From Candidatus Desantisbacteria bacterium CG1_02_38_46 (GTDB taxonomy: Bacteria > Desantisbacteria > UBA1551 > UBA1559): a stretch of DNA of 46,651 nucleotides. This document shows, piece after piece, positions 4,757 through 44,708 of the stretch. The first letter of the stretch is position 1; the number at the start of each line of letters is the position of its first letter. A program made the translations under genes and the position numbers. The DNA is taken from positions 1 through 46,651 of the forward strand of contig MNUO01000108.1 in the NCBI GenBank assembly GCA_001871015.1. The letters are read 5' to 3'. The notes under the pieces are model-generated. The model saw only the letters and a list, made by a program, of their open reading frames with translations. It was not told the origin of the DNA and made no database searches.

Positions 4757-5053
4757 ATGATGACAAAGGATGAAATTATTAATATTCTTAGCACTCAATT
4801 GCCTTTTATACAGAAGCAATTCTATGTAAAAGAAATAGGGGTATTCGGATCTTTTGTAAAGCAGGAGTACAGTGAGGAAAGCGACATAGATGTGCTTGTT
4901 GAACTTGATAATAGACATAATGACTTATTTAATTTTATCCGTCTCAAAGACTATCTTGAAGAATTGTTTCATAAAGAAGTTGACCTTGTGATGAAAGGAG
5001 CAATAAAACCAAGAATCAAGGACAAAATATTAAAGGAGGCGATTTATGTCTGA
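4757..5053 (+). CDS. Minimal nucleotidyltransferase (MNT/MntA-type antitoxin)
   Basis: GVFGSFVK...SDIDVLVE pol-beta motif, about 98 aa, overlaps a DUF86 gene. Confidence 0.92.
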   Translation: MMTKDEIINILSTQLPFIQKQFYVKEIGVFGSFVKQEYSEESDIDVLVELDNRHNDLFNFIRLKDYLEELFHKEVDLVMKGAIKPRIKDKILKEAIYV

Positions 5054-23946: not shown

Positions 23947-23948
23947 CA

Positions 23949-23976
23949 GTATTATTTTTTTCTTCAATTGTAACAC
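23949..23976. promoter_or_regulatory. Putative NikR operator
   Basis: GTATTA-N16-TAACAC imperfect inverted repeat with the 6-16-6 geometry of the E. coli NikR box. Confidence 0.55.
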
Positions 23977-24196
23977 GAATTTTAAAAATATAATACAATA
24001 TGAGGTTTGAAACGAGAGGGGGTGATTCCAAAAAGAGATGAGATGTGAAGGTAAAAAAACAAGAAGGCAGCCCTGTCGGTAAACAAGAACTGCCTTCCTG
24101 ACGGTACCTGTGTTACACAAAGGTAAACCCAGGCCCGCTTATGACATATATAATATCATAAGTCGGGTCAAATGTCAATAAAAAGGAGGCTCGACG

Positions 24197-26209: not shown

Positions 26210-26224
26210 AGGACAGGTATTAAA

Positions 26225-27088
26225 ATGGACAGGAAGACATGGGCAGGGATAATGCTTTTGGTTATTTCTGCCCTGTGCATCAGCATTTTTTTGTCGGGGG
26301 ATAGAAAAGGGAGTAAGCCCGTAAAAGGACCTCCTTACCAGAGGATTGTTTCTCTTTCTTCTACCACAGAGATTCTCTGTGATTTGGGAGCAGTAGATAA
26401 AATAATAGGAATTGGCGGTGTAAGCAAAAAATCTCCTTATTATGAAATTCTTAAAGATAAACCACAGATTGGAGGTGGGTTTCACAACCTCAACATAGAG
26501 AGAATTTTGGGTCTTAAACCAGATTTAGTCTTCTGCTGGAAAGCGCATGCGGATGTTCTCAAATCAAGGGATTTGAATGTGTACCCCACAGGTCCTTATG
26601 ATATAGAGGGGATAATGGAGTTAATAAAGGATGTGGGCAAATTTGTTGGTAAAGAGAAAGAAGCAGAAAAAACTATTTTTGATATGAAAACGAAAATAAA
26701 TAAGATAGAAGAAAAATTAAAAAATGCCGGTAGCCAGCCACTTGTTTATTTTGAAGCAGGAACGTTAGGCAAGTCAAGGGCTAAAGGTTCGCTCACGCAT
26801 GATTTAATTACAAGGGCAGGGGGAATAAATCTTGCAAAGGATGAACCGGTTCCATTTCCTTTATTAAGTAGTGAATGTATAATTGAGAAAAATCCGGACA
26901 TTATTATTGTTGAGGAATATGGCGCTCCTGTTGAAGAGATAAAAGCTCGCAGGGCATGGCAGAATATAAAGGCAATAAAAAACAACAGGGTTTATCAAAG
27001 TCCTGTGTATTATACCAATTACACTCCAAGGTGTCTTGAGGGGTTGGAACAATACGCTAAATGGTTTCATCCCGAGGTTTTTAAATGA
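26225..27088 (+). CDS. Cobalamin/iron-chelate ABC transporter substrate-binding protein (BtuF-like)
   Basis: RIVSLS, NIERILGLKPDLV, AGGINLA, NPDIII. Confidence 0.9.
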   Translation: MDRKTWAGIMLLVISALCISIFLSGDRKGSKPVKGPPYQRIVSLSSTTEILCDLGAVDKIIGIGGVSKKSPYYEILKDKPQIGGGFHNLNIERILGLKPDLVFCWKAHADVLKSRDLNVYPTGPYDIEGIMELIKDVGKFVGKEKEAEKTIFDMKTKINKIEEKLKNAGSQPLVYFEAGTLGKSRAKGSLTHDLITRAGGINLAKDEPVPFPLLSSECIIEKNPDIIIVEEYGAPVEEIKARRAWQNIKAIKNNRVYQSPVYYTNYTPRCLEGLEQYAKWFHPEVFK

Positions 27089-28092
27089 AACAAAAAATAA
27101 TTCTTTCTGTTTTGTGCACTGTGCTTTTTCTAACTTTGCTTTCAACCCTGACGATTGGTCCGGTGCATATTCCGATAAAAACAGTTGCAAAAATTCTCCT
27201 GTCTAAGATTTATAATATCCAAGCAACATGGCCAGAGAATTTTCAATCAATAATACTTTTTGTCCGGTTTCCACGAATACTGTTAGGTATTCTTGTTGGT
27301 TGTGCTTTAAGTGTTTCCGGCTGTGCGATGCAGGGTATGTTCAGAAATCCTATGGCAGATTCTTATGTCTGTGGCATTGCATCAGGGGGAGCGTTTGGAG
27401 CTTCTCTGGTTATTATTTCCGGGATGGGGCGGGGCTTGATTATGCCTGTTGCATTTGGTTTTTCCCTGCTCGCAATATTTATCGTCTATTATCTTGCAAA
27501 GACAGGTAGGAAGGTTCCTGTTGAAACTCTGCTTCTTTCAGGTATAGCGATTTCTCTTTTCTTTTCAGCGCTTACTTCTTTTATCCATTACATTTCCGAA
27601 GAATGGCAGTGGCGCGAGATGATTTTCTGGATTATGGGAGGTTTATGGAAGAGTGACTGGAATAGAGTTGCAAGCAGTTCCCCGATTATTATTCTGGGCA
27701 CATTGGGGTTAATGTTTTTTAGCAGGGAATTGAATATTCTTTTAATAGGCGAAGAACAGGCACAGGACTTAGGGGTTGAAGTGGAGAAAACAAGAAAAAT
27801 TATCCTTGTTTTAAGTGCACTTGTAGCTTCTTCTGCGGTTGCTGTGTCAGGTATCATTGGTTTTGTAGGATTGATTATTCCTCACACGATGAGACTTATC
27901 ATAGGTCCTGACCATCGATTTCTTCTTCCGGCATCCTGTCTTGCCGGCGGCATATTCCTTGTCTGGGTTGATACAATTTCCCGCACTCTAATTTCTCCAA
28001 GCGAACTTCCAGTTGGTATTATTACTGCGTTGTTCGGGGTTCCGTTCTTCCTGTTCTTGTTGAGAAGAAGAAAGAAGATAATTGGATTTTAA
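27085..28092 (+). CDS. FecCD/BtuC-family ABC permease
   Basis: RFPRILL, QGMFRNPMAD, GIIGFVGLIIPH, ELPVGIITA. Confidence 0.93.
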   Translation: MKQKIILSVLCTVLFLTLLSTLTIGPVHIPIKTVAKILLSKIYNIQATWPENFQSIILFVRFPRILLGILVGCALSVSGCAMQGMFRNPMADSYVCGIASGGAFGASLVIISGMGRGLIMPVAFGFSLLAIFIVYYLAKTGRKVPVETLLLSGIAISLFFSALTSFIHYISEEWQWREMIFWIMGGLWKSDWNRVASSSPIIILGTLGLMFFSRELNILLIGEEQAQDLGVEVEKTRKIILVLSALVASSAVAVSGIIGFVGLIIPHTMRLIIGPDHRFLLPASCLAGGIFLVWVDTISRTLISPSELPVGIITALFGVPFFLFLLRRRKKIIGF

Positions 28093-28093
28093 G

Positions 28094-28879
28094 ATGAAAT
28101 TAAAGGTTTCCCATCTGAATTTTTCTTATGATGATGTTGAGGCGCTGGAAGATGTTTCTCTGGATGTGGAATCCACACAAATTCTGGGAATCATCGGACC
28201 GAATGGTTCCGGGAAAACAACACTTCTTAAATGCATAAACAGAAAGTTAAGACCCCGCTACGGGACAATATTGATTGACACTAAAAATATCTCTAATTTT
28301 TCGCGCAAAGAAATTGCAAGAAATATAGGTGTGGTTCCTCAGGTTTCCTCAATTTCTTTTTCATTTCTTGTATCTGACATAGTCTCAATGGGAAGATACG
28401 CGTATCTTTCAAGATTTGGCAGGGAAACAGAGAAGGACTTATCAGCAGTCAAAAGTTCATTAGAACTAACTGGAACCGCACATTTATCCAATAGGTTCAT
28501 TAATGAAATTTCAGGCGGGGAATATCAAAGAGTAATTATTGCCAGGGCATTAGCACAAGAGTCAAAAATTCTCCTTCTGGATGAACCAACATTACACCTG
28601 GATATCAATCACCAGATAGAAATCCTGGAATTAGTGCGTTCGCTTGCAAGAAAAAGAAATCTTGCAGTAATAATGGTTTTGCATGATTTAAACTTATCTG
28701 CCCGGTTTGCAGACAGGTTGCTCCTCTTGAATAAAGGCAGGGTTTACAAGGCCGGTTCTGTGGAAGAGGTGCTTCAACCAGAGAACATAGAGAAGGTTTT
28801 CCGGATAAAGGTCAAAATAATCCGTGATACTGAGACAAACATATTGAGTGTTCTCCCGGTTTCAGTAATGAAAGGATAA
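28094..28879 (+). CDS. Iron-chelate/cobalamin ABC transporter ATPase
   Basis: GPNGSGKTT, ISGGEYQR, LLLDEPTLHLD. Confidence 0.94.
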   Translation: MKLKVSHLNFSYDDVEALEDVSLDVESTQILGIIGPNGSGKTTLLKCINRKLRPRYGTILIDTKNISNFSRKEIARNIGVVPQVSSISFSFLVSDIVSMGRYAYLSRFGRETEKDLSAVKSSLELTGTAHLSNRFINEISGGEYQRVIIARALAQESKILLLDEPTLHLDINHQIEILELVRSLARKRNLAVIMVLHDLNLSARFADRLLLLNKGRVYKAGSVEEVLQPENIEKVFRIKVKIIRDTETNILSVLPVSVMKG

Positions 28880-28881
28880 AA

Positions 28882-31800
28882 ATGAAGAAAGAGCCATGGA
28901 TTGGGTTTTATCATCCGGGATGCAACAGTGTTTTTCAGCAAAAAGCTGATTATGTAAGGTGGTACGAAAAACAGCAGCCTCATTTAAAATACTGCGCTTC
29001 AAAAAAGGTTGGGATATTTTTCTCCCGTTCCCAGTGGATAAAAAAAGATATGAGGTTAGTTAATTTATTGCTTGAAGAACTTGAGAAAAGAAAAATTTTT
29101 CCTGTTGCTGTTTTTGCTCAAGCCAGGGAATACGGTGGTCCGGGATGTCCTGGCTTGGAGCCGGGCCTGAAATTGTTGAAGGGAGTTGATTTTATAATAA
29201 ATCTGCAATCATCTTTTCTTGTTCAATCTGCCATCGGGAAAGAATCATTGCCAGGTATTCTGGAAGATATAGGTGTTCCGATTATGCAGGCAGTGCATGA
29301 AAGCTCAAGGACAGAGACGGAATGGAAAGAAAATCCTCAAGGGTTAAGTCCATCTGTCCAGATTTACTGGGTGGCACAACCGGAATTCAATGGACTGATT
29401 GAACCCATTCTTGTTTCCGCAAAGGATGAAAGCAGAAAAAGCGAAGGGGGTTTTGGCGGTCCGAGGAAGCCGGTGAAAGAAAGGATAGACTTTCTCATAG
29501 AAAGAATCTCTGGCTGGTTAACATTATCCCGAATTCCGCCTCAAGAGAGACGGGTAACCTTCCTTTTGCATAACGCTCCCTGTGCAGGGGTAGAAGCTTC
29601 TGTAGGAGGAGGGGCCGGGCTGGATACGCTGGAAAGCGTTGTAAGAATAATGAAGCAGATGAAAGAAAGAGGATATAAAATAGAAAATTGTCCGAAAGAC
29701 GGCAGGGAATTGATTGATATAATTATGCACAGAAAGGCAGTCAGCGAATTTCGCTGGACAACCATAGACGAAATTGTCCAGAAAGGAGGGGTCAGGGAGT
29801 TTATCAGCGTAGAAAAATACAATCAATGGCTGGATGAATTAAGTCCTGCAACAAGAGAAAAAATGATTTCAGGATGGGGCAATCCTCCAGGGGAAGGAAT
29901 GGTTTATCAGGGGAAAATCGTTGTTACCGGAATTAAATTTGGCAATGTGAATGTGCTTGTTGAACCAAAAAGAGGCTGTTACGGGGCAAGGTGTGACGGA
30001 AAGGTGTGCAAGATTCTCCATGACCCTGGTATTGCCCCCACACATCAGTGCCTTGCTACCTATAAATGGGCAGAGGAAAATTCTGATGTAAAAATTTCCG
30101 TAGGAACTCATGGATACATAGAATTTCTGCCGGGTAAATCAGTTGGATTGAGCAGGGAATGCTTCCCGGAAATTATTACTGGCAAAAAACCGCATTTGTA
30201 TATTTATACGGTTGCCAATCCCGCAGAGGGAATACTTGCGAAGCGGCGCGCGTCCGCCACAATTATTGACCATATGACGCCAGTGATGAAGCCATCAGGA
30301 CTTTATGATAAATTAAACGAAATGGAAGAACTCTTAAAGCAGTGGACTCAAGCAAAAAGTCTGAACCAGGAAAGCCGGGCAAAAGTTATTCTAAAAGATA
30401 TTTTTTTTCTTGCTGAGAAGTCTAATCTTATTGAAAAAGGCAAAGAGGTGCCAGTAGAAAATTTAATTGAATATTTGCACGGGAAGTTAAATCTTTTTCG
30501 GGAAACGCAGATAAATGATGGAATGCATATTTTAAGTAAAATTCCTGACAGGAAAGGTATTGCGAACATAATTGTTTCTATTCTTCGCTTTGAAGGGACG
30601 TGGCCATCCATAAGAAGGTTAATTTTAGAGACAATAGGTTATAATTACGGCACAGACCATTCAGAGCTGCTGGATAGAACTACTGGGATTGCATTTGAAC
30701 TGGTAAAAACCGGGTTGAATATAAAACTGGATAAAGAGAGCAGGGTAATATCATCACAGAAATTGAAAAAGAAAATTTCTGAATTGATGGAGGTAAAGAA
30801 TAAGGATAAGGCAAAAGAATTAATCCGGCTTATTATGTGGGCAGCAGAAGTAATTTACCCGAAGTTAAAGATGGTTAAAGGAGAAATACCGCAGCTTTTA
30901 AGGGCTTTTGATAAGGAGTATATACGGCCTGGCGCCAGTGGCCACATAACTCGCGGGAAAATAGAAGTGTTACCCACAGGTAGAAATCTGTACAGTATGG
31001 ACACTCGCGCAATCCCCACAAAAGCCGCGTGGGAAGTGGGAATTAAAATGGCACAGGGCTTGCTGGATAAATATCGCAGAGACGATGGGAAATATCCGGA
31101 GAATATCGGAATGGTTTTGTGGAGTATTGACGCTTACCTTGCTGATGGAGAACAGATTTCCAAGATTTTATATCTGATAGGTGCAAGACCCGTCTGGATG
31201 GAGTCGGGGATTGTAAAGGGGACAGAGGTTATTCCTTTGAAGGAACTTGGAAGACCGCGTCTGGATGTGACCATAAGGACAAGCGGTATTTTCAGGGATA
31301 CCTTGCCTCATATAATAGAATTACTTGACGAAGCAATCTGTAAGATAGCAAATCTTGATGAGAGTGATGAAGATAATTTTGTAAAGAAACACGGGGCTGG
31401 CTATCGGATTTTCTGCGCACGGCCAGGCGGCTATGGCAACGGCGTAAGCTTAATGATTGCAGCCAGTGCATGGGAGAATATGAAGGATTTGGGAGAAATT
31501 TATATCGAAAGGGGTGGCTATGCCTACGGGAAAGGAGTTTACGGAAAGGCCTCGCATAATGAATACGCACATCGTCTGAGCAGTGTGGAGGTAGTTTTTC
31601 ACAAACTGCCTTCCGACGAATTTGACATTCTGTCCTGTTGTAGTTTTTTTGATTTTCAGGGGGGGATGTACTCGGCAGTCAAGTCTCTTTCAGGAAAAGA
31701 ACCCAGAATTTACTGGGGTGATACAAAAGACCCGCAGAGGCCAAAAATTAGAGACCTAAAGGATGAAATAGAAAAATCTGTGCGCACAAGACTTCTGAAT

Positions 31801-32250
31801 CCTGCTTGGATTGAAGGAATGAAAAGACATGGATATAAAGGAGCAGGTGATATTTCCAAAAGAATCGGGCATGTTTATGGTTGGGATGCATCTGCAGAAG
31901 TAGTGGCTGACTGGATATTTGATGACATTGCAAAAGCCTTTGTTTTGAATGATGAAAACAGGAAATTTTTTGAGGATAATAATCCCTGGGCGATGGAAGA
32001 AATTTCGCGCCGCTTACTGGAAGCAGAAAAACGCGGCATCTGGAAAGCAGACCCCGATGTTTTAAGGGAATTGAGAAACAAATACCTGGAAATCGAAGGG
32101 TGGATAGAAGAAAAAATGGGAGATGTCCAGGGAGAATTCCAGGGAGGAAACATTGATATAATAACAAAGAATGAGATTGAAGACTGGGCAAAGAAATCAA
32201 ATTTTGATTTGGAAGAGTTTTTAAAAACAGGAGGGAAGAATGCACCATAA
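28882..32250 (+). CDS. cobN: CobN/magnesium chelatase H-family subunit
   Basis: [54 protein letters not shown]; metal specificity unknown. Confidence 0.9.
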
Positions 32251-34204
32251 ATATGTTGTTTATCCATTTACTGCAATTGTGGGCCAGGAAAAAATGAAAA
32301 AGGCACTTATTCTTAATGCTATAGATTGGAAAATAAGCGGAGTTTTGATTCGCGGAGAAAAGGGAACTGCAAAATCTACTGCTGTCCGGGCACTTGCGGC
32401 CCTACTTCCAGAAATAGAGGTGGTTGCTGATTGTCCTTTCAGCTGTAACCCATATGAGCTGAGAGAGATGTGTAAATCCTGTCAGGAACGTAAAAAATCA
32501 AACCAGAAAATTTCGGTTAAAAAGAGGAGAATGCTTGTTGTGGACCTGCCAATCAATGCAACTGAGGACAGGGTTATCGGAACGTTGAACATAGAAAAGG
32601 CATTGAAGGAGGGAACCAAGGCCCTGGAGTCGGGCATACTCGCAGAAGCAAACAGAGGGATATTATACATAGACGAAGTAAATCTTTTGGATGACCACAT
32701 TGCCGACGTTCTTCTGGATGCTGCTGCAATGGGAGTGAACATTATAGAGAGAGAAGGCATATCTGTTTTTCATCCGGCCAAATTCATTCTTATTGGGACT
32801 ATGAATCCCGAAGAAGGGGAATTGAGGCCGCAGCTGCTGGACAGGTTCGGATTAAGCGTCCGTGTGGAAAAAATAGAAGATAGAGAAAGAAGGGTAGAAA
32901 TAATCAAACTAAGAGAAGAATTCGATGCCGATTCATTTTCTTTTGAGAAAAGGTTTGGCAAATTCCAAGATGGAATGCAGAAGAAAATAATTAAGGCAAG
33001 AGATATTCTGCCCAAAGTCAACATCCCGGAAGACCTTTTGTCGAAAATCAGCCAGACCTGTATAGAATTTGCAGTGGACGGATTGAGGGCAGATATTATT
33101 ACTGCAAAGACAGCAAAGGCAATTGCCGCTTACGATTGTAGAGAGAAAGTAAATGAAGCTGATATTCTTGAGGCGCTTGAATTTACGCTTGAACACCGTA
33201 TGAGAAAGAATCCTTTTGAGAAACCCGAGCTAGACAGAGAGAAATTAAGGCAGACAATGGAAAAGGCAGGTCAAAAAGAGAAAAAATCCCCACCACAGAA
33301 CGATAAGCAAAAAGATTCACCTCGGCAGGATAAAGAAAAATCCCGGGAAAACCCTTCTGCAAAACCAGGAATTCCGAAAGAAGAAATTTTCAAAATAGGG
33401 GATGGTATAAAAACAGATAAAATGTTTAATGTTAAAAAAGACAGAATCTATCGCAATTCCACGGGCAGGAGCGTAAAGACACTTACGAAGTCAAAACAGG
33501 GGAAGTACGTAAGAACAAAACTGCCGAAAGGAAAAATCAGAGACATTGCAATCGATGCCACCATCCGGGCAGCTGCCGTTAATAAAAAAAACGGTGGGTT
33601 TAAGATAAACATTGAGGACATCCGTGAGAAAATAAGGGTTGGGAAAGGAGCTTCACTTGTGGTGTTTGTAGTAGATGCCAGCGGTTCTATGGGGGCAACT
33701 GAGAGAATGAAGTCAGCAAAGGGAGCTATATTTTCCTTTCTTAACAGAGCATACCAGAAAAGAGACAGAGTGGCTATGATTGTCTTCAGAAATAAAGAGG
33801 CTTATACCTTGCTCCAGCCGACAAGAAGCATGGATCTGGCAATGAAAAAACTTGAGGAGATTCCTACAGGAGGAAAAACACCTCTGCCAGCAGGCATTTT
33901 GAAAGGGATGGAAACAATTAAAAGTGAACTTATTAAGAACGATAATTTGATTCCTGTGTTGGTATTAATAACTGACGGTAAAGGAAATGTGCCAATAGAA
34001 GAAAATGTTTTTAATGAACTTAAATATTGTGCCGATGAAATTAAGAAACGGAATCTGCGGACAATTGTAATAGATACAGAGTCCGGTTCTCTTAGATTCG
34101 GTCTCGCAAAAGAATTTGCAGAAGATTCAAAGGCAAAATATTATCATTTAAATGAAATAGAACCAGGGAAGATCGCGTCAATTGTTAGTTCAGAGGTGCG
34201 TTAG
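32240..34204 (+). CDS. ChlI/ChlD-type chelatase AAA+ ATPase with C-terminal vWA domain
   Basis: [43 protein letters not shown], charged linker, DASGSM MIDAS. Confidence 0.93.
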
Positions 34205-34712: not shown

Positions 34713-36606
34713 GCGTGCCAAGAAGTTCTTTGATTTCTAATTGACTGAAAGGTGTCAATCATCGTAATTGTCTGTTAGCGATGTAGTCTGAGATGCAATA
34801 TGTGGAGAAATCTGCAGTGTTGTAGCTATTTGACAAATTCCGCTTTAGGCGGGAGAGGCAAACAAGCAGACCGTAACAAAAGTGAACCTATATGTAGCCT
34901 CGTTAGGAGTAAATGGGAAAGGCGAGCCTGTGTTATGTGGGCGAAGCCAGTAATCTATCCCAAGAGACAGATAAAAGCAGGATAGATTTTCTCCGGGGTA
35001 ACAGGGACGGTATGCTTGGAAAGAACTCAAGGGAAACTTGGGAGAGCCTACCCTATCACTCGTAAGGAGTAAAACTTTTGCCTATAACCGAAAGGGAAGT
35101 GGCAATAAGGGTAGGGAGGTAGTCGGAGGAGTTCATAGTAGCGAAGAGAATAGGGACAACAAAACCCTATATGAGCGAAGGAACTCTGCTTTAACTAATG
35201 TTTTCAAAGAAAGGATGGATTTAGTAGATTGGACAATAACCTACCAACTACGGATAAAGTTCAGGAATTTCAGAGAAAACTATACCTTAAGGCAAAGTCA
35301 CAGCCAAACTTCCGCTTCTATGCTTTATACGACAAGATTTATCGAACAGATGTCCTTCAAAAAGCCTGGCAAAGAGTGAGATTAAATCACGGTTCGCCAG
35401 GCATAGATGGGAAAACCATCAAGGACATTGAAGAGGCAGGAGTGGAAGATTTTCTTAAAGGCATTCAGCAAGAGCTGAAAGCAAAGGAATATCAACCATC
35501 GCCAGCGAGGAGAGTTTATATCCCCAAGCCTGATGGCAGGTTAAGACCATTGAGCATACCTACTCTAAAAGATAGGGTTGTTCAGATGGCTTTAAAATTG
35601 GTAATTGAGCCTATTTTCGAAGCACACTTCGAGGATAACTCATATGGATATAGACCTCAAAGGAATGCCCAGCAGGTAGCTTTGGAAATCCGTAAATATC
35701 TTAATTACGGAATGACCGAAGTTATTGAGGCTGACCTTGAAGACTGTTTTGGTTCTATTCCTCACAGGGAACTTCTGGATATGATTGCCAGAAGAGTAGT
35801 TGATGGTAGGGTGCTACACTTAATAAAACTATTCCTGAAAACAGGAGTAATGGAGCAAGGAGGGAAAAGGATAGACGAGACAGGCACTCCACAGGGCGGG
35901 GTAATATCGCCATTATTGGCAAATATATACCTTGACCAGATGGATAAAGGCTGGAAGCCATTAAATGAAACTGCCCGTCTTTTAAGATATGCAGATGATT
36001 TGGTGATTATCACCAAATATAATGCAGAGAAATTTCTCTTTGAACTTCAGAAACTTACTACTAAATTGAAGTTAAAACTTAAGCCAGCAAAAACAAGAGT
36101 AGTAAATGCAGAAGAAGAAAGTTTTGACTTTTTGGGATATAGTTTTAGGAAAGCATTGAACCCACAGAAGACGAAGAAGGTAGCATATTTTTGGCCATCA
36201 CAGAAGGCAGAAAAGACAATAAAAGAGAAAGTGAGGAAGATTACAAATCCTGCTCGACCTGTAAAGGTAGGGCAAGTGATAAAAGAACTCAATCCAGTAA
36301 TTAGGGGATGGGTAAATTACTTTAGAATAGGCAACTCTACAAAGAAATTCGATAATCTTAAGTTGTGTGTAGCAGAGAAAATTAGGAAGTTTATGCGTAG
36401 ACGCAGGCAGAAGGCAGGATATGGATATAAGAAATATCCTGATGAATATCTATACAGCAAATTAGGTTTGTATAGAGACTATCATCTTGCGTGGACGAAA
36501 GCCTTAAGATGAGCGGTTATCGGAAAGCCGTGTGAGGGAAAACCTCACGCACGGTTTGATGAGGGGACGCTGAAAACCCTGTGAGGGCGTCAGTGTTCTA
36601 CTCTAC
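34713..36606 (+). mobile_element. Group II intron, apparently full length
   Basis: 5' GCGTG (variant of GUGYG); domain V gaaagccgtgtgagggaaaacctcacgcacggtttg; domain VI ending ctctAC; candidate EBS1 gttatgt (about 34932) pairs with upstream exon acataat. Confidence 0.88.
35229..36512 (+). CDS. ltrA: Group II intron reverse transcriptase/maturase without endonuclease domain
   Basis: PGIDG, RPLSIPTLKDRVVQ, GTPQGGVISPLLANIYL, RYADD, FDFLGY, LNPVIRGWVNYF; TTG start. Confidence 0.95.
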   Translation: MDNNLPTTDKVQEFQRKLYLKAKSQPNFRFYALYDKIYRTDVLQKAWQRVRLNHGSPGIDGKTIKDIEEAGVEDFLKGIQQELKAKEYQPSPARRVYIPKPDGRLRPLSIPTLKDRVVQMALKLVIEPIFEAHFEDNSYGYRPQRNAQQVALEIRKYLNYGMTEVIEADLEDCFGSIPHRELLDMIARRVVDGRVLHLIKLFLKTGVMEQGGKRIDETGTPQGGVISPLLANIYLDQMDKGWKPLNETARLLRYADDLVIITKYNAEKFLFELQKLTTKLKLKLKPAKTRVVNAEEESFDFLGYSFRKALNPQKTKKVAYFWPSQKAEKTIKEKVRKITNPARPVKVGQVIKELNPVIRGWVNYFRIGNSTKKFDNLKLCVAEKIRKFMRRRRQKAGYGYKKYPDEYLYSKLGLYRDYHLAWTKALR

Positions 36607-36640: not shown

Positions 36641-36853
36641 ATGTGCAAAAAAATGGATTATTTTTTGAAACACGGTAAAGAACTCGAGAAAAAATATGCA
36701 GGAAGATATATTGCTGTAATAGACAACAAAATGGTCGCCGTTGGTTCTAGTCGTGTCGAAGTTTATCAGAAAGCAATAAAATCCATTCCTCCAGATAAAG
36801 ATTTAGGGATATTTTATTTACCATTAAAAAAAGAGGTTTTGACTGCTTTATGA
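36641..36853 (+). CDS. Small DUF5678-like protein
   Basis: LEKKYAGRYIAV pattern; AAGGAG RBS; coupled to the downstream aspartyl protease. Confidence 0.7.
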   Translation: MCKKMDYFLKHGKELEKKYAGRYIAVIDNKMVAVGSSRVEVYQKAIKSIPPDKDLGIFYLPLKKEVLTAL

Positions 36854-37242
36854 AATTTCCTTATTTAGAAGTTAGTAAAGACAATTTTGTTCCTATAATC
36901 ACTTTTGAGATTTGTGCAGGCCAGAGATGGATTAGACTGGAGGCCTATATCGATTCTGGTGCTACTTATAGTATTTTTCATGTGGATACTGCTGGATTGT
37001 TAGATATAGACTATCAAGAAGGGAAAAAGATATTGATTACAGTAGGAGATGGGGGAGTTATTCCTGTATATCTTCATAAATTACCCGTCAGATTTGCTGG
37101 GCTTGAATTTGATGCCATAGTAGGATTTTCGAAAAGTTTAGGTGTTGGGTTCAATCTTTTAGGTAGAGCTGGATTTTTTGAGAAATTTAGAATCTGTTTT
37201 AACGACAGAGATAAAATTGTTGAGGCAACAAAACTTATTTAA
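36850..37242 (+). CDS. Retropepsin-like aspartyl protease
   Basis: AYIDSGA catalytic motif; NLLGR. Confidence 0.8.
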   Translation: MKFPYLEVSKDNFVPIITFEICAGQRWIRLEAYIDSGATYSIFHVDTAGLLDIDYQEGKKILITVGDGGVIPVYLHKLPVRFAGLEFDAIVGFSKSLGVGFNLLGRAGFFEKFRICFNDRDKIVEATKLI

Positions 37243-37388: not shown

Positions 37389-37417
37389 TTGACTTTTTCT
37401 ATTATATAAGTTATAAT
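37389..37417 (+). promoter_or_regulatory. Sigma70-type promoter upstream of the tRNA-Arg fragment
   Basis: TTGACT-N17-TATAAT. Confidence 0.6.
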
Positions 37418-37541: not shown

Positions 37542-37600
37542 AGGGACAGACACATTCTACCCCCCGATGTCACATCGGGACGGTAAATGTGTCAGTCCCT
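37542..37600. repeat. Inverted repeat with a nested family-C palindrome
   Basis: agggacagacacatt ... aatgtgtcagtccct enclosing cccgatgtcacatcggg. Confidence 0.75.
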
Positions 37601-37608
37601 ACATACGT

Positions 37609-37650
37609 GCGCCTGTAGCTCAGGAGGATAGAGCAACGGTTTCCTAAACC
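37609..37650 (+). tRNA. 5' half of tRNA-Arg(CCT), truncated; att-like fragment 1
   Basis: GCGCCTG-TA-GCTC-AGGAGGATA-GAGC-A-ACGGT-TTCCTAA-ACC, then no T arm or 3' acceptor strand. Confidence 0.85.
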
Positions 37651-37843
37651 TGTTGTCGCGACTGAAATAAGTGCTGTCAAATCAATGCTTTTTGAGTTCT
37701 GCCACCAAAGTTCGATTTTCATTAGTTTTCATAGACTTTCACGGACTTTCATTTTCTGCGACCACGGTGTTTTGAATCTCTAATTAAAAATGGAACGATT
37801 TTTGTAAAGTTATAAAATATTTAGAAAGTCAGATAAGAGATTT

Positions 37844-39622
37844 ATGAATATGAGAAAAAGTAAAGATTTGTGGGACATAACCGATAAGCCGTCTACTAGA
37901 ACAAAACTTAAAATATTGAGAAAGTGTTTTGATATATGGCTTACAATTTGGAATAAGCAAGGCTGGATAGACAATGAATGGTATATTATGGATCTTTTTG
38001 CAGGAAGAGGTAAATATTCTAGTGACAAGGACACAGTAAGTGGTTCTCCGCTTATTTTTCTTGAAACAATTGCCAGTAAGAAAAAGGATTTGGAAAAGAA
38101 AAATCGTAAGATAAATCTTTTTCTTGTTGAACAAAAGAAAAGAAATTACAAATATCTTAAAAATAACATTGATGGGTTTATGGCGAGCAACAAAGGTTTA
38201 GAAAATGTTGTTGCGATAATAGACTTTAAGAACGATTGTAATAAAATCATAAATAAAATTATAGATTCAATAGAAAATACAAACAAGCACCCTCTTTTTG
38301 TTTTAATAGATCCCTCAGGTATACAGATAAAAGAATCTACAATGGAAATGATTGTGAATTTGAAAAATCCAAAAGAGATATTGTTGAATTATATGTTAGA
38401 AGGAGTTAGAAGGACTAGCGGAATATTGAAGAAGGGACATCGTGGCGAAACTTTAACTATAAAAGAATTAAAAACAGTAGAAACCTTAAAAGCATTTATT
38501 GGTAAGAATGTTAATATAATTAATGTAAGTGACAGGAAAATTTTAGAAGATTATGTAAGCATATTCACTTCACAAGGATTAAAAGTAATTGGATATGATA
38601 TGAAATATCCAGATAGAGATGACATATTATATTACCTTTTATTTGCCTCCAGAAAATTATCAATTACGAACATCGTAAAAGACATCTATGGCAGCCAAAA
38701 AGAAGAAGACCTAGGTTCCACTCTGTTTGGTGGGAAAGATTTTTATAAAAAGGAGATTTTTAGCTTAAATTCAGGATTAGGAAAAACAGAAAGAAAATCT
38801 CTTTTATATAGAACTAAAGTAGAATATGGGAATTGGACAATTAATCACGTTACTGGATGTATGCATGGATGCAAATTTCCTTGCTATGCTATGATGATGG
38901 CAAAAAAATTTGGATGGATTAAAAATTATGAAGACTGGAGAAGTCCCAAAATTGCCACAAATGCATTGGAAATTCTGGAAAAAGAGATTCCTAAATATAA
39001 AGATGAAATTGATTTTGTTCATCTTTGTTTTATGTCTGATCCGTTTATGTACAACTCTGAAAAAGAGGATTTAATTCCCGAGATAAAAAGTTTAACTTTA
39101 AATATAATTGAGAGATTAAATGCAGAGGGAATAAAAGTGACTACCTTAACAAAAGGGATTTATCCTGATGAAATTTTAGATACCAGAAAGTTTTTGCAGT
39201 TCAACGAGTACGGTATAACTTTAGTTTCTCTAAACAAAGATTTTAAAAAGGATTTTGAGCCATTTTCAGCACCTTATGAAAAAAGAATAGAGTCTTTACA
39301 AAAATTAGCTAAAAAAGGATTAAACACTTGGGTAAGTATGGAACCTTATCCTACCCCAGAACTGGATAATACATCAGCAAATATTGAAAAAATCTTACAG
39401 GGCATTTCATTCGTTAAGAAAATAATATTTGGCAAATTAAATTATCACAGAATTGCTTATTGTAACGGCAATAGTGTCCACATATGGAAAAATAATGAAG
39501 ATTTTTATAAAGAAATGGCTAAAAGAGTAATAGATTTTTGTAGTAAGAATGACATAAAGTATCACATTAAATTTGGCACACCGTTAAGTAAAAGAAATAC
39601 AATAAATATTTTTAAGAAGTGA
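37844..39622 (+). CDS. Fusion of a TcmP-like (three-Cys-motif partner) domain and a radical-SAM-like domain
   Basis: N-half: TKLKIL, MDLFAGRG, GSPL, LIDPSG, YYLLFASR; C-half: NHVTGCMHGCKFPCYA, CFMSDPF, TWVSMEPYP. Confidence 0.8.
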   Translation: MNMRKSKDLWDITDKPSTRTKLKILRKCFDIWLTIWNKQGWIDNEWYIMDLFAGRGKYSSDKDTVSGSPLIFLETIASKKKDLEKKNRKINLFLVEQKKRNYKYLKNNIDGFMASNKGLENVVAIIDFKNDCNKIINKIIDSIENTNKHPLFVLIDPSGIQIKESTMEMIVNLKNPKEILLNYMLEGVRRTSGILKKGHRGETLTIKELKTVETLKAFIGKNVNIINVSDRKILEDYVSIFTSQGLKVIGYDMKYPDRDDILYYLLFASRKLSITNIVKDIYGSQKEEDLGSTLFGGKDFYKKEIFSLNSGLGKTERKSLLYRTKVEYGNWTINHVTGCMHGCKFPCYAMMMAKKFGWIKNYEDWRSPKIATNALEILEKEIPKYKDEIDFVHLCFMSDPFMYNSEKEDLIPEIKSLTLNIIERLNAEGIKVTTLTKGIYPDEILDTRKFLQFNEYGITLVSLNKDFKKDFEPFSAPYEKRIESLQKLAKKGLNTWVSMEPYPTPELDNTSANIEKILQGISFVKKIIFGKLNYHRIAYCNGNSVHIWKNNEDFYKEMAKRVIDFCSKNDIKYHIKFGTPLSKRNTINIFKK

Positions 39623-39723: not shown

Positions 39724-40302
39724 ATGCAAAATCTTTTTAATGAATTAAAGACTCTTTTGGAAAAAGACAATAGATTGGTAATCGAAGGCAAACTTTTAAA
39801 AAACAAAGTTATTGAACTGGCACTGAAATTAGATTCAGAATTGTTGAAACTACTTCTTAAGAATGAAAGTATAAAGAAACATTTCTTTCAGGAAGTCGAG
39901 GGAGCACTTGTTTTTGATAAAATAAAATTCCAAAAATTTGTCAGCAATAAGGCATTTTTACCTGATAGTTATACTTCGTTTAAAAATAAAATAGGACTTG
40001 TAACTGAAAATGAAGAATATCTCTCTGAAAGTAAAGAGGTTGTTTTAACCTGGCCATATAAGGACTGTGTGCTTGAAGGTGGTATGGAAAAAGAGGACGA
40101 GAAACGAGCTGAAATATTTTACAATGAAATACTTGCTCCAGATGAAATTGACCGCTTACTTGAACCGAAAGTTTTAACTAACTTCAAAAGAATAGATAAA
40201 GACGGAGAACATAAAGTAAAAGAAAAAATTATTTTTCTGGATTTCTTGCGTATGGTTCTGCGTTATTCCTTTTGTGCTTTTTGCAGAAGAGGTTCATCTT
40301 AA
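39724..40302 (+). pseudogene. N-terminal fragment of a type III R-M Mod methyltransferase
   Basis: LLKNKVIELAL, FLPDSYTSFKNKIGL, WPYKDCVLEGG, EIFYNEILAPDEIDRLLEPK; similarity ends near 40220, with no DPPY or FxGxG motif. Confidence 0.8.
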
Positions 40303-40915
40303 AGATGGTAAAATAATCCCTGGAACCATTGTGTCTTCTGACACTGATTCAGTTAATCTGAAGACAGAGTATGGGGAAATTCGGATAGAACGAAAAGATA
40401 TAAATAAAGTGGAATACGCAAAGCCAATCGAAAGAAAAAAATTAAGAAAATTTGCAGTTGGGTTTGAAATGAACCCCTATTCTTATTACACTTCTGCAAT
40501 ACCCTTATGGGCGTTCGGCATTTCTTATTTACCTTCACCTAAAGTTGCAATTCAGGCAATGGGAAGTTATTTTTCCTTGTGGGGTAGGAGTGTTTCAAGC
40601 ATCTACTTTTTTTATGGATATCCAATTAAAGTGGCAGAAAATCCAGAGATTAGCTTATTCATTAACGCCGGATGTGCTTATCAACATGCCCATTATGAAG
40701 CAACTTATTACTCATCTTCTTATGATTATGATGCCTGGTCTGCCTTAGTAGGCCTTACCCTCGAGTCCCACCCTCTTTCTTATTTGCCTAATTTTGGATA
40801 TTCGGTCCGGGGCGGAATTAGTTATTCTTGGTTTCCCAACCTGACTTCTTATTCATACGCTGGAAATGCTATGTGGTACTATTTGAGCGCAGGTCTTTTT
40901 TATTATTTGTTCTAA
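40220..40915 (+). CDS. Probable outer-membrane beta-barrel protein that has lost its start codon
   Basis: Frame reads KKKLFFWISCVWFCVIPFVLFA-EE (signal peptide) directly after an in-frame TAA; aromatic-rich; ends YYLF; ORF track starts it at 40274. Confidence 0.6.
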   Translation, partial: KKKLFFWISCVWFCVIPFVLFAEEVHLKDGKIIPGTIVSSDTDSVNLKTEYGEIRIERKDINKVEYAKPIERKKLRKFAVGFEMNPYSYYTSAIPLWAFGISYLPSPKVAIQAMGSYFSLWGRSVSSIYFFYGYPIKVAENPEISLFINAGCAYQHAHYEATYYSSSYDYDAWSALVGLTLESHPLSYLPNFGYSVRGGISYSWFPNLTSYSYAGNAMWYYLSAGLFYYLF

Positions 40916-41021: not shown

Positions 41022-41086
41022 TTGACAGACAAAGATTTTTATGGTATAATGTCTATAAAATCAGACAATTGTCTATAAAATAAGAC
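41022..41086 (+). promoter_or_regulatory. Sigma70 promoter with tandem palindromic operators
   Basis: TTGACA-N17-TATAAT (TG-extended), followed by gtctataaaatcagac and gtctataaaataagac at 20-bp spacing. Confidence 0.75.
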
Positions 41087-41097
41087 AAAGGAGAAAA

Positions 41098-41715
41098 ATG
41101 GAGTATCAGAAAGTTTTAGATAAAATTCTTGGTCAAAAAACAAAAGTAAAGATTCTTCGTTACATGATAAGTTCTCATAATGAGCAAAGTGGCCGCCAGA
41201 TTGCGCAGGAGTCTGGAGTAAACCACGAACAGTGTCATCGTGTCTTGCAGGAACTCTATCGGGAAGGATTATTGAACATGCACCATGCTGGCAATGCATA
41301 CTTGTTCAGTCTGCGAAAGGAACACTACATAGTTAATAAGGCAATTATTCCCCTCTTTCAAACAGAATTAAGATTGCTACAGACTTTAATTGAAGAAATC
41401 AAACACATTAAAAATGCCAAAATTTCTTCCCTGGTACTTTTTGGCAGTATTGCCAAGGGGAAGGGGCGACCCCATAGCGACATTGATGTTCTGGTAGTGG
41501 TCAGAAACAAAGTGAATAAAGAAAAAATATCTGATGAGATTCACAGGAAAAATGATTATTTTCTCTCGCGCTATGGAAATGCTCTATCACCCTACGTAGT
41601 CAGCGAAGAGGAATTTATAAGACGATATAAAAAGGGAGACAAACTTATCAAGGAAATTGTCAGGTGTGGAAAAGTTGTTTCTGGTAAAACACCGGGAGAA
41701 CTTATTACAAAATGA
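41098..41715 (+). CDS. wHTH-fused nucleotidyltransferase (MNT antitoxin)
   Basis: SGRQIAQESGV HTH; VLFGSIAKG..SDIDVLVV. Confidence 0.88.
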   Translation: MEYQKVLDKILGQKTKVKILRYMISSHNEQSGRQIAQESGVNHEQCHRVLQELYREGLLNMHHAGNAYLFSLRKEHYIVNKAIIPLFQTELRLLQTLIEEIKHIKNAKISSLVLFGSIAKGKGRPHSDIDVLVVVRNKVNKEKISDEIHRKNDYFLSRYGNALSPYVVSEEEFIRRYKKGDKLIKEIVRCGKVVSGKTPGELITK

Positions 41716-42128
41716 ATCCCAAAAAGATACCTTTCCAAAAAATTGAACATTCAAGATTTGCCATTTATCTAAAGAAAGCGAAAGATTTTTATCAATCAAT
41801 GCTGAGGGCATACAGCGATAACAATTGGCATTCCGTTGGGTTAGAGGCAGTCCATTGCGCTATTTCGGCTACTGATGCTCTTTTGGTTTATCGGGCAGGG
41901 ATAAGGTGCACAAGTCAGAGACATCTTGATATAGTTGATGTTTTAGTTGACCAGATAAAGACAGAAAAGTCCCAAGAAAATATCAGAACTCTGATTAAAA
42001 TTTTAGAAATGAAAAACTTAGTTGAATATGAAGATAGATTGTTCACTCAAAAAGAGGCATCCGAAATACTCAAGCGCACAGAAAGATACTTTAGCTGGGT
42101 AAAAAATCAATTGCCATCGGATGTTTGA
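41712..42128 (+). CDS. HEPN-domain protein (putative toxin)
   Basis: YLKKAKDF, AVHCAISATDA, H, KNLVEY pattern; coupled to the MNT gene. Confidence 0.82.
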   Translation: MNPKKIPFQKIEHSRFAIYLKKAKDFYQSMLRAYSDNNWHSVGLEAVHCAISATDALLVYRAGIRCTSQRHLDIVDVLVDQIKTEKSQENIRTLIKILEMKNLVEYEDRLFTQKEASEILKRTERYFSWVKNQLPSDV

Positions 42129-42348
42129 ATTTGTGCGCTTGTAAGAACCCTCCGATTAGCATCGGAGGAACCTTGTTGTTCGGGAGTAGCGTCGGTAAAA
42201 TGTCACAATATGCTTCCCCCCTGCTTTTTTTCAAAAGCAAGACGGGGGGACGAGCAGTAACCTTCGCTCCAGGATAGTATGTATTAATAGAATTTGTTTT
42301 TTTGTGTTAAACTTTGACACTCTGATACTTTGACACTGTTTTTATTGT

Positions 42349-42390
42349 GCGCCTGTAGCTCAGGAGGATAGAGCAGCGGTTTCCTAAACC
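42349..42390 (+). tRNA. 5' half of tRNA-Arg(CCT), truncated; att-like fragment 2
   Basis: Identical to 37609-37650 except for one base; truncated at the same point. Confidence 0.85.
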
Positions 42391-42653
42391 TGTATTCACA
42401 ATTAAAATAAGTCTAGCCAAATCAATTGTTTTTGAGTTCTGCCAGCGAAGGTCGGTTTTTACGGAGTTTCATTTTTGCAACCACATTAACCCAGACATGG
42501 AGAGCAAGTGAGGTAAATATTATGATAGCAGAAATAGGTTTTCGTGGTGAATAATATGAGCCTACTCGGAAGGAAGTAGACTTTTTATTTTTGGATTAAA
42601 ATCAACTTAAAAAGTGTTATAACAAATAGGGATAGGTCATATAGGAATAATTT

Positions 42654-44708
42654 ATGAAAAAATTTGTGATGCTTACATTATTAATTTCTACTTTGATTCC
42701 CTCGTTAAGTTTTTGTATGCTTGGAAATGATGAAATAAAAACATATATTCGAAATCTTAAATTTGGGACTCCTGATGATAAAAAGGATGCTGCTTATAGA
42801 TTAGGTAATAGTGGTGATACAATGGTAGTGCCTTTTCTAGTTGAAGCATTAAAAGATGAAAACGCTGACGTAAGAGCTTGGGTTGCAATGGCACTGGGTT
42901 ATGCAGAGGATAGATCCGCAGTTCCTGCTCTTGTAGAAGCATTAAAAGATAATGAGGTGGGCGTTCGAGTAAGTGTGGCCATGGCGCTTGGTGAAATAAA
43001 AGACCCGCAAGCAGTTGAACCTCTTATAGCGGCTTTGAAGGATAAAAATGAAAGAGTTAGGCAAAATGCAGCAGCAGCACTTGGTCAAATAAAAGACAAA
43101 AGGGCAGTAAAACCCTTGATGGAAGCTTTAAAGGATAGTGATCCAACGGTAAGGGAATTTGCTGCGGGATCTTTAGGATACATAAAAGACACTGCAGCTG
43201 TTGAAGCCATAGTAGATATTATCAACAGTGATATTAATGACCGTGTCCGGTGGATTGCTTCAGAGGCTTTGGGAAATTTAAAAGATTCTAGAGCCGTGAA
43301 ATCTTTAATTATAGCTTTAAATGATAAGAACTCGAGTGTTCGAACGGGGGCGGCCTATGCTCTTGGCGAGATAAAAGACCCTCAAGCAGTAGCACCTCTT
43401 ATTAAAGCATTAAATAATCCAGATTGTCGAGCAGAGGCAGCAAGAGCTCTTGGAAAGATAGGAGATGTTGAAGCAGTGGAGCCTCTCATTACTTTTTTAA
43501 AAGATGAAAACCGTTATGTCCGGCAGTTTACAGCAGAGGCTTTAGGAAAAATAGGAGATAATCGAGCTATAGAATTCCTTATTGGAGCTTTGGATGATAC
43601 AGATTGGGAGGTTCGTGAAAACGTAGTGTGTGCTTTAGGGAAGATAGAAGACCCTAAAATTATAAAACCTTTAATTGCTGCTTTAAAAGATGAAGACAAT
43701 CGTGTTCGCGAGAAGATAATTGCTGTGTTAATAGAAATGAAAGAACAGCCCGTAAAATCCTTAATTGCATCTTCAAAAGATAAAAATTGCAATGTAAGAG
43801 AAGGGGTGATTAAAATTCTGGGAGAAATAAAAGAAACACAAACTTTAGAATATCTGATTGAGGCTTCAAAAGACAAAGATTGGAATGTTCAATATTCAGC
43901 CGTACAAGGTTTAACTAAAATGGGAAAATTGGCAGTTAAACCCCTGATTGCTTTACTGGAGGACAAGAAATTAGATTCCGAAATAAAAAGATTCGTGATT
44001 AGCGGTTTAGGTGAAATAGGAGGTAATGAAATTACAAAATACCTTATCGCTACTTTGAAAGATAGAAATCCTGCTATTAGGGCTGGTGCGGGATATACTC
44101 TTGGCAGAATGAAAGAAACAAAAGCGATAAAATCCTTGATCGCTCTTTTAAAAGATAATACAGTGTTTGAGCATGAAGAAGGCAAAACTGTTGGTATGAT
44201 GGCTTCAGAGGCATTAGCAGAAATAGGTAAAGAAGCTATCAAACCGCTTGTTTCCTGTCTTCATGATACAAACCCATTAATAAGAGCTGGAGCTGTTTAC
44301 GCTTTTGGAGAAATAGGTGATACTCAATTTATAGATTCGCTTATTGAAGCATTAAAAGATAAAGATGAAAGAGTTAGAATCAACGCAGTAAGAGCTCTTG
44401 ATAACATGCATGATATAAGAGCATCTGAACCATTAACTAAAGTTTTGAACGATAAAAGCTCTGAGGTTAGATGGCAGGCAGCATCTATTCTGGGAGATTT
44501 AAAATATAAGGGAGCCATTAATTCATTATTAAAACTTGCTTCTGAAGACGAAGATCAATTTGTACGTTGGACTTCGGTAATTGCTCTAAAATATATTGGA
44601 GATCCCAAGGTGTTGCCGTATCTTAAAAATTTATTAACAAAAGAGAAAGACGAAGAAGTAAAAGAAGAACTTCAGCAAGCGATAGAAGATTTGTCTGAGC
44701 AGCAATAG
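42654..44708 (+). CDS. Exported HEAT/PBS-lyase repeat protein
   Basis: Signal-peptide-like N-terminus; many ~31-aa repeats (AVEPLIAALKD..VR..AA.ALG.I). Confidence 0.92.
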   Translation: MKKFVMLTLLISTLIPSLSFCMLGNDEIKTYIRNLKFGTPDDKKDAAYRLGNSGDTMVVPFLVEALKDENADVRAWVAMALGYAEDRSAVPALVEALKDNEVGVRVSVAMALGEIKDPQAVEPLIAALKDKNERVRQNAAAALGQIKDKRAVKPLMEALKDSDPTVREFAAGSLGYIKDTAAVEAIVDIINSDINDRVRWIASEALGNLKDSRAVKSLIIALNDKNSSVRTGAAYALGEIKDPQAVAPLIKALNNPDCRAEAARALGKIGDVEAVEPLITFLKDENRYVRQFTAEALGKIGDNRAIEFLIGALDDTDWEVRENVVCALGKIEDPKIIKPLIAALKDEDNRVREKIIAVLIEMKEQPVKSLIASSKDKNCNVREGVIKILGEIKETQTLEYLIEASKDKDWNVQYSAVQGLTKMGKLAVKPLIALLEDKKLDSEIKRFVISGLGEIGGNEITKYLIATLKDRNPAIRAGAGYTLGRMKETKAIKSLIALLKDNTVFEHEEGKTVGMMASEALAEIGKEAIKPLVSCLHDTNPLIRAGAVYAFGEIGDTQFIDSLIEALKDKDERVRINAVRALDNMHDIRASEPLTKVLNDKSSEVRWQAASILGDLKYKGAINSLLKLASEDEDQFVRWTSVIALKYIGDPKVLPYLKNLLTKEKDEEVKEELQQAIEDLSEQQ

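Follow-up and report, generated by a model that had tools for sequence, protein, structure and literature searches.

A gene at positions 37844..39622 (+) of contig MNUO01000108.1 from Candidatus Desantisbacteria bacterium CG1_02_38_46, analyzed here as one stretch of 46,651 nucleotides (the window), encodes a protein of 592 amino acids (aa) in which a methyltransferase-like TcmP domain is joined in a single chain to a radical S-adenosylmethionine (radical-SAM) domain related to spore photoproduct lyase (SPL). This single-chain fusion is a genuine, conserved protein architecture. On the basis of sequence comparisons and structural models we tentatively favor the reading that the protein is a two-step modifier of DNA bases, which would act as a self-standing phage-defense module within restriction-modification (R-M) operons. 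In the first step the TcmP domain, similar in fold to RlmJ, would methylate the exocyclic amine of a DNA base, most likely adenine N6; in the second the SPL-like domain would remodel the methylated base through a radical produced at its predicted [4Fe-4S]/SAM site. The output would be defense, either as a protective mark on host DNA or as damage to the replicating DNA of an invader.

The open reading frame (ORF) was free of internal stops over its 592 aa, with a second in-frame ATG at 37850, and the motif DLFAGRG of its methyltransferase-like N-terminal half (N-half), already pointed out in a preliminary description of this DNA, corresponded to residues 50-56 (37991-38011). The very AT-rich character described for the locus was also evident, the gene having a GC content of 29.5% as compared to 38.5% for the genome, a value equally low in 0.4% of 1,718 equal-sized windows. 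Single contigs spanned the whole gene with no differences in two of four other public groundwater runs, and the other two covered it piecewise with no difference listed within the gene; the runs with matching contigs may stem from the same sampling campaign as the source assembly. A protein search with the fusion gave 286 hits, and the 120 listed covered 96-100% of the query with identities of 59-100%. The top match among them was the protein of the window itself, which means that the query was counted twice in the resulting set of 121 sequences, all of which (121/121) contained the motif C-x3-C-x-aromatic-Pro-C-Y. Since the gene was identical in two other assemblies and near-full-length relatives among the matches listed shared the fusion, it was considered real and conserved, and an origin through sequencing error, contemplated in the preliminary description, was ruled out. 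The AlphaFold model of the protein had a mean pLDDT of 88.5 and a pTM of 0.61. No RNA run containing the sequence was listed among 24 runs.

The comparison of each half by hidden Markov model and Foldseek proposed in that description assigned the N-half to TcmP with an RlmJ-like fold and the C-terminal half (C-half) to Radical_SAM with an SPL-like fold, from both profiles and structures. The N-half (37892..38692, +) matched the NCBIfam TcmP model TIGR04474 with 109.6 bits against a cut-off of 53 (residues 17-283 corresponding to positions 2-260 of 263), in agreement with the TcmP-like nature attributed to it earlier, and it also matched PADLOC PDC-M30A. The profile match, the model and the conservation of residues point to a Rossmann methyltransferase fold of the RlmJ type. 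The structures closest to the model belonged to the RlmJ family (2oo3, Z 15.7, rmsd 3.4, 217 residues aligned; 6qe5, Z 15.2, rmsd 3.7, 220 residues aligned), the next being Trm1 (Z 14.2), and Foldseek agreed, with RlmJ-family structures taking ranks 1-9; a similarity of 0.79-0.80 to RlmJ in the Atlas was regarded as a lead only. No match of the N-half to PF04378 (RlmJ family) was obtained at E <= 0.1, the PDB sequences gave no credible match when queried with the protein, with its family profile or with the profile of TcmP, and a global hhalign alignment of TcmP to RlmJ was unsuccessful. A TcmP profile built from 62 sequences was aligned by hhalign to Escherichia coli RlmJ with modest confidence (probability 52%, E 1.4e-4), and a smaller one of 26 sequences with a probability of 7.7%. 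The TcmP/RlmJ residues paired by hhalign were S68/S100, E96/E118, D131/D143, and D156-P157/D164-P165; in RlmJ, SAM is bound by their counterparts, and the enzyme depends on D164 and K18 (PMC3814359).

Residue conservation was analyzed in 62 TcmP sequences sharing <60% identity, selected among 244 domains of full length. Invariant residues were K21, D50, and D156 (62/62), and position 96 was always Glu or Asp (62/62), whereas motif IV read D-P-x-G (DPSG in the fusion), with D in 62/62 and P in 61/62, followed by Y/T/W/F/S and then G. K21 lies in the first helix of the model and its match to K18 of RlmJ is only positional, the structural alignment starting at residue 7 vs. 4. Because K21, D50, D156, and the acidic position 96 are conserved across divergent TcmPs, we infer a working SAM-dependent site of the amino-methyltransferase type.

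The C-half (38783..39598, +), which forms a partial TIM barrel in the model, matched Pfam Radical_SAM (PF04055) with 42.8 bits against a cut-off of 29.5. The top structure for it was SPL (4fhc, Z 20.1, rmsd 3.5, 257 residues aligned; next radical-SAM entry, Z 14.6), and SPL was also the sole credible sequence match when a 46-sequence profile of the C-half was compared with the PDB (E 1.5e-5). The cluster motif, C339-MHG-C343-KFP-C347 followed by Y348, is encoded at 38858..38884 (+), exactly where it had been described, and its three Cys were invariant in 120/120 listed relatives and in 46/46 sequences. The contacts of SPL with SAM, Y96, Y98, K174, and S195 (PMC3467042), aligned to F345, Y348, K437, and T459 of the fusion (with a numbering offset of 27 residues, determined manually); of these, Y348, K437, and T459 were invariant in 120/120 listed relatives. 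The preliminary description had set the spacing Cx3Cx3C against the canonical Cx3Cx2C. The spacing is indeed present, but among 86 distant representatives, taken from 150 listed, it occurred in 66, always with a Pro inserted before the third Cys, and the remaining 20 were canonical. As both spacings alternate by one Pro inside one subfamily, the predicted [4Fe-4S]/SAM site is a regular radical-SAM cluster site carrying an insertion, and Cx3Cx3C was rejected as a mark of non-canonical chemistry.

Judged from its sequence, the C-half is a sister subfamily related to SPL and is neither SPL nor DUF5131. The H-donor C140 of SPL aligned to F396, an alignment that could be one residue off; the neighboring C395 was Cys in 60/86 distant representatives and Ser in 24/86, and the substitution C140S impairs SPL (PMC3467042). 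No PF20903 match was obtained for the C-half at E <= 0.1, whereas other TcmP partners scored 54-58 bits. The C-terminal hairpin with which SPL flips the lesion fell outside the profile alignment, and no two-strand hairpin appeared in the model, residues 535-547 having a pLDDT <50. Plain SPL membership was ruled out on the missing PF20903 match and on C140 not being kept in register, in line with the distinction from a plain repair lyase drawn earlier. Nor did the fused partner belong to DUF5131/Gp37-Gp68, the family mentioned for separate TcmP neighbors in that description: the score with PF07505 was 21.8 bits, below the cut-off of 28.9 and over the N-terminal 85 positions only, the score with PDC-M41B was 26.9 bits as compared to 384.8 for a genuine DUF5131 member, the Cys spacing differed, and in a quick tree of 67 rows the subfamily and DUF5131 formed separate clades (SH-aLRT 100), support within the subfamily being modest. 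The nearest NCBIfam models (Rv2578c, PA0069, and mobile pair protein B) were far under their cut-offs. In RadicalSAM.org, SPL, MJ0683-like and DUF5131 proteins share one megacluster (PMC9477430). The genome also contained two further, distantly related SPL-like radical-SAM genes with Cx3Cx2C (C51, 16532-17215, and C101, 13498-14109), both unlinked to TcmP.

The idea of a Rosetta-stone fusion was confirmed by split counterparts, in which the C-half subfamily was encoded as a separate gene of 252-301 aa directly behind TcmP (L002, L084-L088, and L096). In the pairs L002, L084, L085, L086, and L088, the radical half was 47-60% identical to the fusion and TcmP 14-24%, and stand-alone relatives of the C-half (~255 aa) began where the SPL barrel begins. 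Across two phylum samples, 3 of 401 genomes contained TcmP in the first, and 28 of 272 had it above the cut-off in the second; the own phylum of the source comprised two genomes, and the other one (G001) gave no TcmP match. A search of genome contigs with the fusion protein alone gave two loci. The enzyme partners identified next to or fused with TcmP in the 29 above-cut-off loci of the two samples were all SPL-related radical-SAM proteins, of the DUF5131 type (with Cx6Cx2C in those viewed), of the PF20903 type or of the C-half subfamily, some loci having no partner in view. The PF20903-positive, SPL-type partner was either split or fused in proteins of 673-704 aa, such fusions sitting in a separate clade from that of the 592-aa fusion; at L115, L116, L117, L098, and L118 it was fused or adjacent to TcmP and carried the canonical Cx3Cx2C. 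Another protein, P0124 (634 aa), joined a longer TcmP to the C-half subfamily and fell outside the 592-aa clade, support for this branching being modest. Pairing with, and fusion to, SPL-related enzymes is thus a recurrent trait of TcmP, with partners of several types.

Some observations were made alongside at these loci. L168, the locus of L115, presented a GmrSD-HNH gene downstream and a divergent mod-res operon. P0133 (1002 aa), either a true fusion or the product of a read-through, carried the C-half subfamily at its C-terminus, its N-terminal part being without a Pfam match and showing methyltransferase-like motifs by eye. At L164 (289-6289), a pair of TcmP and DUF5131 lay directly 3' of genes for a Y-family polymerase and DnaE, an arrangement resembling a mutagenesis cassette.

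The gene neighborhoods of relatives were analyzed in the best 80 of the 286 metagenome matches plus one genome locus, reduced to 56 at 90% identity, 53 of which had a neighboring ORF. R-M genes were present in the DNA fetched at 35 of these 53 loci and directly adjacent in 29, so that the survey upheld the defense and R-M context previously suggested. Of the 48 loci with an upstream ORF, 26 had a gene of the mod, res-like or type IIG kind <=50 bp upstream; seven relatives sat between a type III mod and res, and two between a ResIII-domain helicase and mod. In the two closest loci (L009 and L079), mod was directly downstream, as in the window. The motifs of the adjacent methylases were DPPF in 12 and NPPY in seven, all of the amino type, none being detected in nine, and other neighbors included PLD-SNF2 helicases, GmrSD, Shedu, a Schlafen helicase, and PDC-S06-like ATPases. 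In DUF5131-type loci (nine with wider flanks) R-M genes were less frequent and rarely adjacent. The family had six viral loci vs. 286 metagenome matches. At the thresholds used, three phage records out of 50,697 matched, and no plasmid record out of 72,556. Split pairs on viral contigs occurred next to terminase or integrase genes (L085-L087), and the Atlas clusters nearest to the radical half included phage members.

Just past the domain, stand-alone TcmPs showed motifs of the types QLSLF, QMSLF, and QRSLF, similar to the beta-clamp consensus QL[S/D]LF, in which positions 1, 4, and 5 are the most important (PMC3919608). The relaxed pattern QxxL/M/F-F/L was found in the tail of 21 of the 62 TcmPs, in contrast with a mean of 2.6 and a maximum of 9 in shuffled tails (2,000 shuffles) and with 5/271 in inner windows. 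This is support and not proof, since the pattern was picked with the data in view and was counted in related sequences. The corresponding position of the fusion, in the linker, reads G-S-T-L-F (residues 291-295; 38714..38728, +), the Gln being missing. A complex prediction of residues 272-312 with the beta clamp of the same genome scored 0.17 (mark, 0.32), which counts neither way.

DNA was preferred as the substrate of the proposed two-step modifier because of the kinship with SPL and RlmJ, the winged helix-turn-helix (wHTH) domains on split TcmPs, the clamp-like tails and the R-M neighbors. Methylation was placed before the radical step since the fast divergence of TcmP would suit a target selector, whereas the radical domain is conserved, as expected for action on a fixed chemical group. 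Residue mapping predicts that DNA would undergo a first step of the amino-methylation type and then a radical one. A self-standing module was favored given that all residues invariant in the family are kept in the window, although mod is only a fragment there and res is missing. In a narrower version, which we hold as a rather doubtful possibility, the protein would be a hypermodification writer docked on the sliding clamp, with RlmJ-derived methylation of newly replicated DNA followed by SPL-like radical conversion to a new nucleoside; bacteria would then have a DNA base made by a radical-SAM enzyme, or a radical lesion directed at replicating phage DNA, and the system would form a defense class of its own.

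Several observations weigh against a two-step DNA modifier. The substrate of RlmJ itself is RNA, single-stranded DNA not being one (PMC3814359). K21 and K18 are left unpaired by hhalign, the N-terminal part of that alignment being visibly out of register. Motif IV is DPxG instead of the DPP(Y/F) of RlmJ, so that the base chemistry may differ from that of N6-methyladenine (m6A). Split TcmPs carry wHTH domains, whereas the fused form lacks them (no PF22560 match). The Gln of the clamp-like motif is missing from this protein, and G-x-T/S-L-F prevails in the fused clade, where the Gln is mostly lost at that spacing. A stand-alone radical-SAM gene whose product shares 72% identity with the C-half was found on a viral contig (L083, 5567-8825), with no TcmP nearby; it starts 13 bp behind a gene for a DUF5906/DUF6371 protein. 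No R-M gene appeared in the DNA fetched at 18 of the 53 loci, many of them short, and the counts of neighborhoods and conservation overstate, since related sequences are not independent. Independent defense modules are typically, and backup systems often, embedded in R-M operons, an embedding that may reflect a genomic sink (bioRxiv 10.1101/2024.01.29.577857). Moreover, no cognate nuclease accompanies the module, leaving the reader of a host mark unexplained.

If the proposal of a two-step modifier were true, it would reveal a new chemistry of DNA modification and probably defense by a new mechanism. Very few radical-SAM enzymes are known to act on DNA, namely SPL and gp53 of phage M6 (PMC8989533). 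As the chain is naturally single, the question can be approached by means of one gene and two series of point mutants.

Among the alternatives, the main one is fork-coupled DNA repair or damage tolerance, in which the SPL-like domain would reverse or process a lesion that TcmP senses or tags. We consider it unlikely, although SPL gives the top fold and no other PDB sequence match is credible, the equivalent of its Y98 is retained, clamp-like tails suit repair proteins, the TcmP-DUF5131 pair of L164 immediately follows genes for a Y-family polymerase and DnaE, and SplB-like enzymes have been found in SOS operons (PMC3765255). A repair enzyme would not need a conserved methyltransferase site of catalytic type, and the gene is mobile cargo of low GC content and patchy distribution, coupled with R-M genes; in addition, PF20903 is not matched and C140 has become F396, beside a C395 that is Ser in 24/86 relatives in spite of the impairment caused by C140S in SPL. 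The protein could also be an off-DNA anti-phage effector that produces a toxic nucleotide or an RNA/tRNA modification upon infection, as proposed for viperins and Ophion, radical-SAM defense systems already known (bioRxiv 10.1101/2025.09.30.679545). The structures closest to the N-half, RlmJ and Trm1, are in fact RNA methyltransferases, and backup systems are frequently embedded in R-M operons (bioRxiv 10.1101/2024.01.29.577857). Viperin, however, reached a Z of 14.1, far under the 20.1 of SPL, no kinase or phosphoribosyltransferase (PRTase) partner recurred in the neighbor clusters scanned, and the wHTH domains of split TcmPs, together with the clamp-like tails, point to duplex DNA, all of which leaves this possibility at a low probability.

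The frequent position of relatives close behind R-M genes (26/48 at <=50 bp 3', seven of the family between mod and res) and the amino-type motif of all neighboring methylases in which one was detected would also suit a dedicated R-M accessory, hypermodifying the m6A of the neighboring type III or IIG methylase or guarding that R-M system. Such a role appears improbable, as partners span unrelated R-M types and positions, the other TcmP loci are mostly without adjacent R-M genes, TcmP retains its own catalytic-type residues and, in the window, an intact fusion has a remnant of mod as its neighbor and res is missing. The least probable explanation, to which we give very little credence, is that of counter-defense or selfish cargo of a mobile element shielding its own DNA from host nucleases. 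It would fit the split pairs by terminase and integrase genes on viral contigs (L085-L087) and the phage members of the Atlas clusters, but the six viral loci against 286 metagenome matches and the scarcity among phage (3/50,697) and plasmid (0/72,556) records at the thresholds used argue against it, and defense cargo also rides in prophages.

As regards its surroundings, the fusion gene was the first cargo of a 4.74-kb cassette between tRNA-Arg(CCT) half repeats at 37608 and 42348. Its place as first cargo was thus as previously described, whereas the "island" amounted to this cassette, with no integrase among the cassette ORFs scanned and the five tyrosine recombinase matches of the genome on other contigs. 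The left junction was a tRNA-Arg(CCT) 5' half (37608..37650, +), interrupted within the anticodon stem (3' arm), that matched the intact tRNA of the relative G001; no intact copy was found in this 88%-complete assembly. It was followed by an att-like arm of ~100 bp (37651..37752, +), common to 42387-42495 and to two tRNA-Ser half-gene junctions on contig C91 of this genome, and the fusion gene starts ~190 bp past the tRNA half. The right boundary, also the start of the next cassette, was set by repeat comparison at a second tRNA-Arg(CCT) 5' half with its arm (42348..42495, +). On C91, two tRNA-Ser(TGA) 5' halves with the shared 100-bp arm occurred at 3140-3285 and 4883-5030 (minus); between them (~3400-4850, minus) lay an ORF of 198 aa with a nucleotidyltransferase-like motif by eye and another of 130 aa, which echo the gene pair at 41098-42128 of the window. 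We infer that the units of tRNA half and arm are att junctions of cassettes added in tandem, and the four junctions apparently derive from one element family inserting at two tRNAs and leaving 5' halves. The repeated TTTCA-type motifs of the arms are presumably integrase sites. Joints skipping the cassette were found only in single low-depth contigs with short sides, and excision was not accepted. A sigma-70-like promoter at 37389..37417 (+), with 11/12 consensus matches in a scan that gave 15 sites vs. 21 in shuffles, is probably the old tRNA promoter and may drive the cassette.

The next cargo, 101 bp 3' of the fusion gene, was the type III mod 5' remnant already described there (39724..40302, +; 192 codons), identified by PF12564 and PADLOC MTase_III and matching another mod of the genome over residues 1-167 only. 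ResIII gave 14 matches in the genome and none on this contig, and no intact type III mod and res operon was found. The other co-cargo comprised an ORF of 213 aa (40274..40915, +), with no functional assignment from Pfam/NCBIfam profile scans, and a PDC-M05A-like pair of wHTH-nucleotidyltransferase and HEPN genes (41098..42128, +; Pfam, PADLOC) with its own 12/12 promoter at 41022-41050, which we take to be MNT-HEPN toxin-antitoxin-like. In a search for an SOS operator of this genome, no shared palindrome appeared before recA and two lexA-like genes. Elsewhere in the window, a gene for a HEAT/PBS-lyase-repeat protein of 684 aa (42654-44708) was the first cargo past the second tRNA half, and CobN/Mg-chelatase and ChlI/D-like genes closed the upstream operon (23533-34204). 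A group II intron encoding a reverse transcriptase/maturase of 427 aa was located at 34746-36606, the 3' end of a second intron at 202-286 and, just past the former (36641-37242), a gene for a DUF5678 protein (70 aa) overlapping an aspartyl-protease-like ORF of 130 aa. An 18-bp palindrome at 37562-37579, REP-like or operator-like, had near-copies on C60, C57, C6, C41, C22, and C3.

The fusion is not unique as a sequence feature, since it belongs to a family of hundreds and TcmP is already named by NCBI and listed as a phage-defense candidate. The closest known arrangement is the pair of TcmP and DUF5131/Gp37-Gp68 (PF07505), PDC-M30/M41, with which it shares a TcmP above the cut-off, an SPL-related three-Cys partner and mobility; it differs in being a single chain, in a partner from another subfamily and separate clade with Cx3Cx2-3C instead of Cx6Cx2C and, as compared with PDC-M30A-type TcmPs, in lacking their C-terminal wHTH. 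PDCs are predicted candidates picked by their embedding in R-M-type systems (bioRxiv 10.1101/2024.01.29.577857), the available main text of that source being without the names M30 or M41. TcmP appears in tables only in the accessible parts of PMC12445080 and PMC12429752, and goes unmentioned in that of PMC10853773. Apart from such table mentions, no functional study of TcmP, DUF5131, GMT-wHTH or PDC-M30/M41 was found in a search that left subscription journals largely outside, nor was the literature origin of the Pfam name GMT-wHTH.

With SPL (SplB, 4fhc, PF20903), the fusion has in common the fold, the profile match, the SAM contacts and a Tyr after the third Cys, and it departs from it in the missing PF20903 match, in C140 being out of register and in the coupling to a methyltransferase fold. 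The likeness to RlmJ, the 23S rRNA m6A2030 methyltransferase (PF04378), covers the fold, GSP, an acidic motif II, the Asp of motif III, and the Asp-Pro of motif IV; in contrast, the fusion has DPxG and not DPPY, gives no PF04378 match, is patchy and mobile instead of housekeeping, and carries a radical-SAM domain. Ophion and prokaryotic viperins share the radical-SAM enzyme in a defense context but belong to another subfamily, with PHP and PRTase partners and a Z of 14.1 for viperin vs. 20.1 for SPL. In the thymidine hypermodification of phage M6 a transferase acts first on a DNA base, which the SPL-like radical-SAM isomerase gp53 then remodels (PMC8989533). The gp51/gp53 system offers a parallel of logic, namely group transfer followed by radical base remodeling by an SPL-like enzyme; it is viral, acts on bases derived from 5-hydroxymethyldeoxyuridine (5-hmdU) and uses amino-acid transferases, whereas a SAM-binding Rossmann domain in cellular defense loci would take that place here. 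The underlying TcmP gene pair is thus known and uncharacterized, and what is new is the single chain, the different radical-SAM subfamily and a TcmP without wHTH.

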